Assembly (NCBI GenBank): GCA_945923475.1
Contig: CAMELE010000001.1
Coordinates: 99,875 to 163,874 of the forward strand
From: an uncultured Mollicutes bacterium
GTDB lineage: Bacteria; Bacillota_I; Bacilli_A; Acholeplasmatales; Anaeroplasmataceae
Direction: 5' to 3'
DNA length: 64,000 bases
Part shown: positions 38,146-41,100 of the stretch, one piece after another
Layout: the number at the start of each line of letters is the position of its first letter
Position numbering within the stretch: the first letter of the stretch is position 1
The notes under the pieces: generated by a model
What the model saw: the letters and a program-made list of their open reading frames with translations, nothing else
Databases searched by the model: none
What the model was told of the DNA's origin: nothing
Position numbers and translations under genes: made by a program

Positions 38146-41100
38146 TTAACTCAATGAAAGATTTACGAGGGCCAACTGATTCGCCCATTAAATCCATGAA
38201 TGTTTTATTAACGAGATTTATATCATCCATTGTAATCTGTTTTAAGGTGCGAGTTTCTGGATTCATAACTAATTCCATTTCATGAGTATCCATTTCGCCT
38301 ACATGTTTCTCCAATATTACTATTGGCACTGACTATTTCTTCGCTCCGGCTAACGTATTAACTGCCATCATCACGCCTACCTTTTTGAAAGTATGTATCA
38401 ATAATACTTCCTACTCCCCGACAAAGGGGATAGTCGATACAGGATTAAACTACGATATTTTTCCAATTCTAATAACTCCATATATTTGTAAAAGAACCAT
38501 ATGTAAGTTTATTAGAATAATCTTTATAAACTTCTCTTATATTTTCTCCATTTTTACGACGTAATCTTATTTGATAAACATCTTGCTCAGTCATTTTAGA
38601 ACGTCCATTTTTACTTCCCTAATTAGAAGTATTATGTTTATGAAAATTTTTATTTTCAATACTATACACTTCTGGCATGATATTTTTCCAAGTATCACCA
38701 TTCCAAATTTTATGAAAACCAGACTCACCAATTAAATTTTTATAATCTTCATAAACTTCATTTTTTCTTTCTTTATTATTATAGCGAGTTCTAATATCAA
38801 TAACATCTTGCTTAGTTAACTTATGACTCGGATGGCTTTCTTCAGCATTAAATTGTCCTCCAGGAGTCATATTATACTAATCAGGGTAAGTATTATAATA
38901 CTTTATATAATACTATTCTTTATCATTAAGCTCTTCTATAGAACATTCTTCTAATATCTCAAAAGAAAAATTATCTATTCCATATTCTAATATGTCTTTA
39001 TATAACTTTTTATTTTTTTCTCTATACCAGTTATATGATTTTTTATGTTCTCTAAAACGCTATTCTATTTGTGTGCTTTGTCCTATATAAGATAAGTTAT
39101 TTATTTTATTGGTTATTTTGTAAATACCAATCATTTTAATTACCTCACTAATTATAAGTAAGATAATATCGCAGTTCTTCCCACGAGATTATCTCCACTA
39201 ATATTTGACGCTTATTCATTTCAGTTTTTCCTGAAATGTCCTAAATATTAGCAAGACTGCCTCGTTAGCCGCAAACTGGAAAATTTTACCAATTCGCGAC
39301 CCCGCCGATTAGCGGAAAAGTAGGTAAGGGCCAGACTTCCTCGTACCCTTTCATACGTCCTAATTCAAAGTTTTTACTATTCATAGTTTTTCTGAATGCT
39401 TCAAGGGCAGCGTCATCTTTAAGATATTTAATATTTGTGCCCCAAGTCGCTTTATAAAGAGGTGGAACCGCAGCGTAAATATAACCTTTTTCAATTAATT
39501 CAGGTGCAAACTTCCAAATAAATGTAAGAAATAAAATACGAATATGGCTCGTGTTTATCTTATATTTCTATAAGCACTGACTATCTCTTACTGCCGTTTC
39601 CTGGTTAACCGACTGCTGAACCAGGAACCGCAGAATCCCATTTCGAAGTGCGTATCAATAGCACTCCTACTCCCCCGATACGGGGATAGTCGATACAGGA
39701 TTAGTTAGTTATCCATTTTTTCTATTTTTTAGAATATATAGGTAAATTACTATAACTTCTACCCCATAAAATTGCTTGAAATGTTTGAAATTTTACTCTA
39801 TCTTTATAATCTTCATAAATAGATTTTGCTGATTCAGTTATATATCTCGTTCGGATTTCTATTATTTCTTCCTCACTAAATTCAGATTTAGCACCATTAG
39901 AGCCTTTGCTATTTTCATAAATATAATATTGTTTATTCTCTTTTGTAAATACCTCTGGCATTATATGAGTCCAAGAGCGACCCTACCATAAGTTTTGAAA
40001 ATAACTAAATGATACTTTATCTTTAAATAATTGATATACTTCTTTTTGTTTTTTATGTTGATTATAACTCTATCTAATAAAATAAACATCAGATTCAGTT
40101 AATTTACAATTTGGATTATTTTCTCCATATAAATTAGTCTGTCCGCATTTATTTTTATTATACCCTACTTTTCTAGCATTATAATATACTTCCCAGTAGG
40201 CTTCTTTTTCATTGAGTTGTGAGATTTCACATTCTTCAAGCACTTCATAGGTAAAAGCGTCTTTACCTAACTATTTTATTTCTATATCTAATGGAATACG
40301 ACTACTTTCTCCTTTTGTCTAATGCTCATAAAATCTTCTTTGTATATCATTAGACTATCCAATATACATTTTCCCATTAGATTTATTTGTAATTTTATAT
40401 ATTCCAATCATTAATAACCAACCTTCCCACGGGATTACCTTCGACTTTACTCGGTCAGGCTTCCCCGTTAGCATAAAATTTTTATTTCCTCACAAGTATA
40501 TGAAAACCATATGGGTCTCATATACTTATTTCGTCCAAAAATTTTATACCCCCGTGATGAGCGGGAAAAGGAATTACAGGCAGCAATTTAATCTACCATC
40601 TACATCAGCATCCGCTGTGATAATAATCTTACCATAACGTAATTTAGATTCGTCCACAATTACTTTACCATCTTTAACCTCAAGACCAAAAGCATCAATC
40701 ATCGCACTAATTTCTTTATTTCCTAATGCTTTATGCAAATCTGTTTTTAAAGTATTAAGAATTTTACCTCTTACAGGCAAAACCGCTTGCGTATTGCGGT
40801 TGCGAGCTTCCTTAGTGGGGCCTTCCGCAGAACGACCTTCAACAATAAAAATTTCACATTCACTTCTATTTTTACTATTAGCATCGCTTAATGTGCCGGG
40901 TAAAATAGTTCTTTTCTTCGTATCAACTTTACGAACGGTTTCTTTAGCTTTTTTCGCTTTTTCGCGGGCCGCGCGCGCCAACATTGCCTTATCTACAATA
41001 GCTTTAGCATCTTTTGGATTATTGTCGAGCCAAATTTTTAAATCTTTTGAGACAAGACGTTGAACAATAGTTCTTGCTTCACTACTGGATAAAACATCTT

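Follow-up and report, generated by a model that had tools for sequence, protein, structure and literature searches.

Two putative mobile group I introns with TAG-recoded GIY-YIG endonuclease genes in the gyrB gene of a phage

In the td intron of bacteriophage T4, entry of ribosomes into the intron core impairs splicing, and translation of the endonuclease I-TevI is delayed. Among phages in which a stop codon has been reassigned, a TGA-recoded phage (Agate) carries a recoded group I intron endonuclease in an early gene, and it has been proposed that the in-frame stops hold back the endonuclease until late (Borges et al., bioRxiv 10.1101/2021.08.26.457843). Recoded crAss-like phages have dense group I introns and inteins, with TAGs inside an intein open reading frame (ORF) (Yutin et al. 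2021, PMC7886860), a paper in which we found no statement on gyrB or on the recoding of GIY-YIG homing endonuclease genes (HEGs). Recoded intron endonucleases in early genes are already published, and the locus described here is a clear new example, written in a TAG code. It lies in a 64,000-nt stretch of contig CAMELE010000001.1 (positions 99,875 to 163,874; assembly GCA_945923475.1), hereafter the window, to whose first base all positions refer. We consider it highly probable, from the sequence, that the gyrB gene of a gut phage in this window harbors two mobile group I introns, each with a GIY-YIG HEG in which TAG is read as glutamine, and we include in this reading a proposal for how the introns would home and how the synthesis of their endonucleases would be timed.

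By homology, the interrupted gene is that for the B subunit of a phage type IIA topoisomerase (gyrB/parE-like), with the introns in its 3' third. The GyrB/ParE-type gene lies on the minus strand, as do all of its exons, introns and HEGs given below, and consists of three exons broken by two insertions of ~1.04 kb; a gyrA homologue is found downstream. A 514-codon ORF (40574-42118) encodes the ATPase, transducer and Toprim parts of the protein and then, beyond ...ITADADVDG, reads on through 21 nt of non-coding sequence to a TAA. When 42118-40595, 39549-39345 and 38301-38117 are joined, a protein of 637 amino acids results that is colinear from end to end with E. coli GyrB (7z9c_B, E 5.5e-137); matches to solved GyrB/ParE chains have E values of about 1e-136, and the alignment is unbroken across DADVDG^SHIR and RMKG-L-GEM (a caret marks the point of insertion). 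It is this colinearity that places the insertions at 39550-40594 (1045 nt, phase 0) and 38302-39344 (1043 nt, phase 1, splitting a codon as t^ta), in agreement with the limits of 38302-40594 given in an earlier note on this DNA: intron 1 begins with base 40594 and intron 2 ends with base 38302. Exon 1 (40595..42118) comprises codons 1-508, covers the ATPase, the transducer and the Toprim up to DADVDG, and has zero in-frame TAGs. Intron 1, of group I (IA2-like), falls between Gly508 and Ser509; the last base of its 5' exon is U, its own last base is G, and it has an in-frame TAA six codons in. Exon 2 (39345..39549) supplies codons 509-576 and the first base of Leu577, the Leu codon of RMKG-L-GEM that is split by intron 2, a member of the same family as intron 1, and exon 3 (38117..38301) runs from the remainder of Leu577 to residue 637 and the stop codon. 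The predicted ligated junctions are GATGGT-AGCCAT and AAAGGGT-TAGGCG, in longer form ...GTAGATGGT^AGCCATATT... and ...ATGAAAGGGT^TAGGCGAAATG...

Judged by their RNA architecture, both insertions are group I introns of one family, and we predict that they self-splice. The shared 5' and 3' motifs through which the two were originally linked are borne out: GTATCGACTATCCCC has exactly two occurrences in the 64 kb, one per intron, as has AGA(G/A)ATAGTCAGTGC, for which these are the only exact matches, and both introns also have the 5' motif uuuucc(c)gcu(c/a)auc..gggg, which is a covarying hairpin after P3; a third motif turns out to be P7.1/P7.2 read on the plus strand. In intron 1, from RNAalifold helices with compensatory changes and from our table of guides and loops, we place the internal guide sequence (IGS), cuGCC, at 40579-40583, the P3 5' strand, AAUUCC, at 40570-40575, and a P3.1-like hairpin, uuuucccgcucaucacggggg, which is the 5' motif just mentioned, at 40549-40569. 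Its 3' core (39550..39699) comprises J6/7, P7, P7.1, P7.2 (loop UAUUGAUAC), P3' (GGGAUU), a long P8, P7', P9 (GAAA loop) and the terminal G. Intron 2 has P1 AAGGGU/GCCCUU (IGS 39326-39331), the P3 5' strand CCUACU (39319-39324), a P3.1-like hairpin (39300-39318) and a 3' core (38302..38443) of P7, P7.1, P7.2, P3' (GGUAGG), P8, P7', P9 (GUAA loop) and the terminal G.

These helices are supported by covariation. RNAalifold, applied to 16 family members, recovered P1, two post-P3 hairpins, P4, P5, P7, P7.1, P7.2 and P9, with compensatory changes in 28 of 53 pairs. We also specified by hand a structure of 78 pairs that includes the P3/P7 pseudoknot, P6 and P8, and tested it on eight introns from the insertion site of intron 2 (site 2; that of intron 1 is site 1): 97.3% of cells were paired, as against 89.4% when shuffled and ~40% when slid, and double changes occurred in 23 pairs where 13.5 +/- 2.2 were expected, a number reached by 0 of 500 shuffles. 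P3 was 100% paired in these eight introns, with covariation at three of its six pairs; it was tested on this subset and read by eye elsewhere because a global MAFFT alignment of 16 mini-introns misregistered P3' in the site-1 introns. The T that ends the 5' exon faces a G in 20 of 20 family members, giving a U.G wobble at the 5' splice site, and every intron of the family has a terminal G (..ACACG, ..ACATG, ..AGATG). At each of four sites, the guide has changed in step with the exon (AAGGGU/GCCCUU, AGGGU/GCCCU, ACGU/GCGU and UGGU/GCCA), the weakest P1 being that of window intron 1, with three exon pairs and two intron pairs. P7.1 and P7.2 are present between P7 and P3' and covary, and the P4-P6 and P7-P3'-P8-P7' segments can be aligned to the authentic T4 td intron. 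We found no P2 between P1 and P3; the P3 5' strand comes directly after the guide sequence, and two covarying hairpins occupy the interval from P3 to J3/4-P4 (P3.1 is a recognised optional pairing; PMC3873408). A canonical IA2 fold with P2 was rejected, as no helix lies between P1 and P3, and with two post-P3 hairpins in the place of P2 the family is therefore IA2-like and not canonical IA2. An intein was also rejected, because every frame contains stops and the RNA structure is conserved.

We note that the loop of the first post-P3 hairpin, AUCA (40553-40556), is complementary to the invariant P7.2 loop UGAU (39652-39655), and that the single family member with GUCA (intron B of locus L066, described below) carries the matching UGAC; this one compensatory event suggests a loop-loop tertiary contact between the first post-P3 hairpin and P7.2. 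We also note that the first 12 nt of intron 2 (ACGAGGAAGUCU, 39333-39344) resemble the 5' strand of P4-P5 (ACGAGGCAGUCU, 39245-39256, minus strand), which lies ~88 nt downstream. This near-repeat is possibly an alternative pairing or the remnant of a duplication.

The P6 loop of each intron holds a HEG of the GIY-YIG type. HEG1 (39701..40411, 236 codons) ends with a TAA at the P6 3' strand of intron 1 and has TAG codons starting at 40357, 40321, 40273, 40072, 39985 and 39724 (codons 19, 31, 47, 114, 143 and 230), and HEG2 (38445..39134, 229 codons) ends with a TAA directly after the P6 3' strand of intron 2 and has TAG codons starting at 39062, 38915, 38879, 38621 and 38471 (codons 25, 74, 86, 172 and 222). 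With six and five TAGs, respectively, the HEGs agree with an earlier count of at least five in each, and the TAGs are the sole interruptions: there is no frameshift and no internal TAA or TGA. The two proteins both start MIGIYKITNK, and their alignment by BLASTP over 230 amino acids is significant (E 2e-49) at an identity of 39%, lower than the ~45% first estimated. Both pass the cut-off of the Pfam GIY-YIG model PF01541 (E 1.4e-8 and 1.7e-8) and match homing endonucleases in PHROG (E 1e-25 and 7e-39). When HEG2 is aligned to the catalytic domain of I-TevI (1MK0), its GIY, YIG, Arg of EQRFREH, KE and YN stand opposite catalytic positions, and the N-terminal motifs of HEG2 are common to HEG1. 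A duplicated C-terminal repeat of ~50 amino acids, noticed earlier in HEG2, is real (47% identity, E 1e-13) and is also found in HEG1 (E 3e-7); its labeling as NUMOD/IENR-like finds no counterpart in Pfam, where neither HEG matches NUMOD1, NUMOD3 or NUMOD4 at E <= 1. The only match besides GIY-YIG in the Pfam search was to HTH_38, below threshold (E 0.21), and the C-termini may be two helix-turn-helix-like repeats. A third GIY-YIG protein is encoded at 32090-33103 (minus strand; 337 amino acids, with a coiled-coil N-terminal part, a C-terminal GIY-YIG and three in-frame TAGs) by a free-standing gene that lies outside the introns and whose relatives swap its TAGs for CAG or CAA.

Counting TAG as coding raises the coverage of the window by long ORFs from 72.5% to 90.5%, and 65 ORFs contain 82 in-frame TAGs and stop at TAA (49) or TGA (16), never at TAG (0). 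The codons opposite TAG in orthologues are CAA in 49 and CAG in 11 cells (60 of 100), the next being TCA with 8; since CAA is two mutations away from TAG, the alternation of the two reflects synonymy, not mutational proximity. TAG and Gln alternate in the HEGs as well, at YIG(Q/TAG)S, YP(D/N)(Q/TAG)YN and WSY(Q/TAG)NWK among other places, and TAG corresponds to Gln also at HEG columns 19, 46, 86, 97 and 222. The site-2 HEGs keep all 229 codons, with dN/dS of 0.06-0.31, and of 0.07-0.32 in the part downstream of the first TAG. With TAG a sense codon, the alternation and the low dN/dS together indicate that the HEGs are functional genes written in code 15. Read in the standard code, HEG1 would end after 18 residues and HEG2 after 24, and the dependence of both reading frames on TAG decoded as Gln, which the earlier note had put forward, is thus supported at the level of sequence. 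Read-through is also needed in the genes for an endolysin homologue (9 TAGs), RecJ (7), NrdD (5) and DnaB (2), and zero TAGs are found in the genes for Pol III alpha (0 of 50 Gln-type codons), primase and ligase and in gyrA and gyrB. The endolysin gene (43318-44619, minus strand), with lysozyme and amidase domains, has the highest TAG count of any gene in the window and is split into small ORFs in the gene calls of one public assembly. We also note four genes (46858-48243, 53171-53626, 55784-57163 and 62127-63752, all on the minus strand) that use CAG near-exclusively for Gln (for example, 20 CAG to 1 CAA and 18 to 1) and have no TAG, the rest of the window being CAA-dominated; perhaps they are recent acquisitions or a separate expression class.

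From the structure of the locus, and by analogy with I-TevI, a mechanism can be proposed. Splicing would restore DADVDG-SHIR and RMKG-L-GEM. In a co-infection, the HEG enzyme would cut an intron-less gyrB near the insertion site, and repair would then copy the intron together with flanking exon sequence. Where TAG is a stop, as it would be in a standard-code host early in infection, ribosomes would drop off after ~20 codons, short of P6/P7, and gyrB would splice with the endonuclease absent; if TAG is suppressed later, full-length endonuclease would be produced. The HEGs stop at the P6 3' strand, a few nt from P7, and full-length translation would therefore unwind the core.

Several observations weigh against this reading. 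The Rfam group I model (Intron_gpI, RF00028) has no match in the window at the gathering threshold or at E <= 10, none in the ORF-less relatives at E <= 1, and none in homologues from cultured phages; the T4 td intron, used as a positive control, was likewise missed by this model, so these negatives carry little weight, and we have used covariation and the alignment to td in its stead. A scan for sigma-70 promoters and terminators, which gave no excess over shuffles, found no promoter-like site upstream of either HEG. No tRNA gene, suppressor or otherwise, was found in the 64-kb window, which is part of a genome whose relatives' contigs reach ~197 kb, or in 60 related gyrB loci; among TAG-recoded phages, Borges et al. 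(bioRxiv 10.1101/2021.08.26.457843) could detect suppressors in just 40%. TAG is not limited to late genes, being present in NrdD, RecJ and DnaB, and a split into early standard-code and late recoded genes is not clean in the window. The absence of TAG among the 8 Gln codons of gyrB is, alone, not significant (p = 0.32), and the number of TAGs is uneven among HEG orthologues (1 to 5).

One explanation of these TAGs, whose chances we put only slightly below even, is that the TAGs in the HEGs are neutral, the outcome of synonymous drift among Gln codons with no role in timing or containment. The range of TAG numbers among orthologues, the turnover of TAG positions and the TAGs in replication-type genes speak for it, and drift would be expected of AT-rich, weakly selected selfish genes. 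What drift explains less well is that TAG makes up 11 of the 27 Gln-type codons in the HEGs and 82 of 621 elsewhere (Fisher p = 5e-4), an enrichment of ~3-fold over the window that reaches an endolysin-like level, that no HEG lineage is without a TAG in codons 1-31, its position differing between lineages (16, 19, 22, 25, 29; joint probability ~0.006, assuming that the lineages are independent), and that the same bias has been reported independently for a TGA-recoded clade. We put forward, tentatively and without calling it probable, the idea that HEG lineages have been selected to keep at least one TAG in the first ~30 codons as a code-switch gate that makes homing late. If there is such a gate, productive homing would be confined to phages or co-infections in which TAG is suppressed, and the genetic code would be both a barrier to the spread of selfish elements and a regulator of it.

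Related gut phages often carry this intron family in gyrB. Loci from our searches are cited by L numbers. In 70 gyrB loci recovered from IMG/VR by a protein-guided scan, mapping of exons places the introns at four sites: IVEG^NSA (L066), DADV(gt^n)DG (L054/55, L066), DADVDG^SH (the window, L069) and KG(t^ta)LGEM (the window, L006-L010, L019, L031/32/43/46-48, L057-60/70, L066). Conserved, covarying non-coding RNA of ~330 nt flanks every HEG and is retained in ORF-less members of 263-287 nt (L019, L069, L066), of which L069 shares the site of intron 1. L066 has three gyrB introns of the family, at 2774-3840, 4080-4350 and 4563-4825: the HEG-bearing one is in the Toprim at IVEG^NSA and the ORF-less ones are at DADV^DG and KG^LGEM.

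The identity matrix and tree of the HEGs resolve site-specific clades. HEG1 is 66% identical to the HEG of L054, which occupies the neighboring DADV^DG site in a phage whose GyrB is ~70% identical, and HEG2 is 52-96% identical to other site-2 HEGs, from phages whose GyrB is 63-98% identical over exons 1-2. HEG2 is 41% identical to the HEG of Lactococcus phage AM1. In their non-coding sequence, the window introns are 45% identical to each other over the 5' part and 67% over the 3' core. Among close relatives, some carry only intron 2 (L006-L010, L019) and others are intron-free. By these comparisons, the window introns diverged long ago within one family and are each specific to a site; the view in the earlier note that they are recent paralogs is not supported. 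On that view, one of the two would be a copy that moved to another gyrB site in the lineage of this phage, which we think very unlikely: both introns do have core motifs, the start MIGIYKITNK and their general architecture in common, but the HEGs and RNAs are too dissimilar, the HEGs group by site in distant phages, the AM1 HEG is as near to HEG2 as HEG1 is, and there are relatives with intron 2 only or without either intron. As an observation apart, a distance of 7 nt separates the DADV^DG site from the intron-1 site downstream of it, yet the HEGs that serve the two share 66% identity.

The cultured, standard-code phage AM1 (NC_049854.1, about 53325-54305; L072) has an intron of the family at the KG^LGE codon, with a P1 and core that match those of intron 2 and a HEG without TAG. 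The family thus crosses code boundaries and is not confined to the recoded lineage, and the TAGs of the HEGs were acquired inside recoded lineages, after the entry of the family. The idea that these elements are adapted to this phage lineage holds for the HEG frames in the window, which need TAG, and fails for the family, which occupies the same codon free of TAG in AM1. We note that the AM1 record lists three topoisomerase II coding sequences (CDSs) and a 'homing endonuclease', with the intron unannotated, and that Enterococcus phage EF1 (MF001358.1; L071) has an unannotated family member in another gene, where the record lists hypothetical proteins. A megablast search of the region against GenBank phages gave no match. 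Scans for exact words from the 5' junction of intron 1 gave none in IMG/VR and two hits in JGI metagenomes, neither of which could be aligned to the window (L076 is unrelated sequence), and a search of IMG/VR by protein pattern for close relatives of HEG1 gave only two distant GIY-YIG loci.

Comparison of alleles shows signatures of mobility. Intron-less gyrB alleles, sought as the earlier note had proposed, exist in related phages at 94-97% nucleotide identity (L001-L005 and similar loci). Around site 2, these alleles have 13-16 differences per 100 nt, against 0-10 (mostly <=7) in other bins, and alleles that bear intron 2 have 2-9; the site-2 junction reads GGG TTA GGC in intron-plus alleles and GGT CTT GGA in intron-less ones. 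This fits co-conversion of the flanking exon, or a resistant target. At site 1, intron-less alleles differ from the window junction by 1-6 in 60 nt. The exact window sequence is found in ENA assembly ERZ11466718, and an allele 98% identical to it (L079, Logan ERR12771148) has a 575-nt deletion, corresponding to window 38491-39065, that removes HEG2 codons ~24-215 and spares the intron-2 ribozyme and the whole of intron 1. Invasion, HEG decay and loss are, as far as sequences can tell, all visible among these alleles.

Two other accounts of the locus can be dealt with briefly. That the HEGs are decaying pseudogenes, with TAG a real stop and the introns immobile relics, is hardly credible, for although intron HEGs often degenerate, relatives include ORF-less and internally deleted versions, and no suppressor tRNA was seen in the window or the 60 related loci, the 229-236 codons are interrupted by TAGs only, dN/dS stays low downstream of the first TAG, orthologues alternate TAG with CAA or CAG, and TAG is a sense codon throughout the window and never a terminator. 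Just as improbable is a split gene without RNA splicing, in which free-standing HEGs fragment gyrB into pieces that are translated separately and then assemble: T4-type topoisomerases are naturally split and AM1 is annotated in this manner, but at their 5' ends exon 2 (68 amino acids) and exon 3 lack both a start codon and a ribosome-binding site, the insertions interrupt invariant motifs, in one case in the middle of a codon, and the covarying group I-type RNA surrounds every HEG and is kept when the ORF is gone.

Elsewhere in the window, nine copies of an intergenic repeat of ~60 nt (19137-19196, 28713-28772, 31306-31365, 42726-42785, 50919-50978, 51999-52058, 54146-54205, 58364-58423 and 62016-62075) have, when the coding (minus) strand is read, the look of TTGAT..17 nt..TATAAT with a ribosome-binding site, AAAGGA, after it. 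They are probably the common promoter/leader of the phage upstream of replication-type operons.

The locus provides the single TGA-code case of Borges et al. with a well-resolved counterpart in TAG code. One essential early-type gene here holds two introns with HEGs; near-identical genomes supply intron-less, ORF-less and HEG-deleted alleles, and the orthologous intron and HEG in a cultivable standard-code Lactococcus phage add to this study material. Such a set of alleles could be used to ask whether recoding times endonuclease expression and protects splicing, and whether the genetic code limits the spread of mobile elements. We also note that gene callers and Rfam miss these introns and that public annotations fragment both gyrB and the endolysin gene.

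Of the systems described previously, the T4 td intron (IA2) with I-TevI resembles the gyrB introns in being a phage group I intron in a gene of DNA metabolism with a GIY-YIG HEG in its P6 loop, in having an alignable core (UAA-CGGGG..AAUCCCGUG and CGACUAUCCC..GGGGAGUAGG..CGAAA..GAGAUAGUC) with P7.1/P7.2, in that the HEG ORF ends within the ribozyme core, and in that translation of the HEG would need to be delayed to spare splicing. The gyrB family differs in having no P2, with the P3 5' strand placed right after P1 and followed by two hairpins (P3.1-like), and in the C-terminus of its endonucleases, which may consist of two helix-turn-helix-like repeats where I-TevI has zinc finger, NUMOD and helix-turn-helix parts; any delay would be achieved here through TAGs, whereas td uses a late promoter and a hairpin that hides the ribosome-binding site. 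The topoisomerase II introns of Lactococcus phages AM1-AM12 (NC_049854.1) belong to the same family, interrupt the same ..KG^LGE.. codon and share P1 AAGGGU/GCCCUU, the P3.1 loop, the P7-P9 core and the architecture of the HEG (41% identical to HEG2); these phages, however, are cultured and standard-code, their HEG is TAG-free, and separate CDSs are annotated rather than an intron. The crAss-like phages also show that introns and inteins can be dense in TAG- or TGA-recoded gut phages, but in another phage group and in other host genes (MCP, PolB, TerL). In the placement of the HEG, the use of the recoded stop and the timing proposal, the features that our comparison covers, the Agate phages are alike in having an intron HEG in an early standard-code gene of a stop-recoded gut phage and a preference for the recoded stop in that HEG. 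TGA encodes Trp in those phages and TAG encodes Gln here, and the window adds to that precedent two introns in one gene, together with their intron-less, ORF-less and standard-code counterparts.

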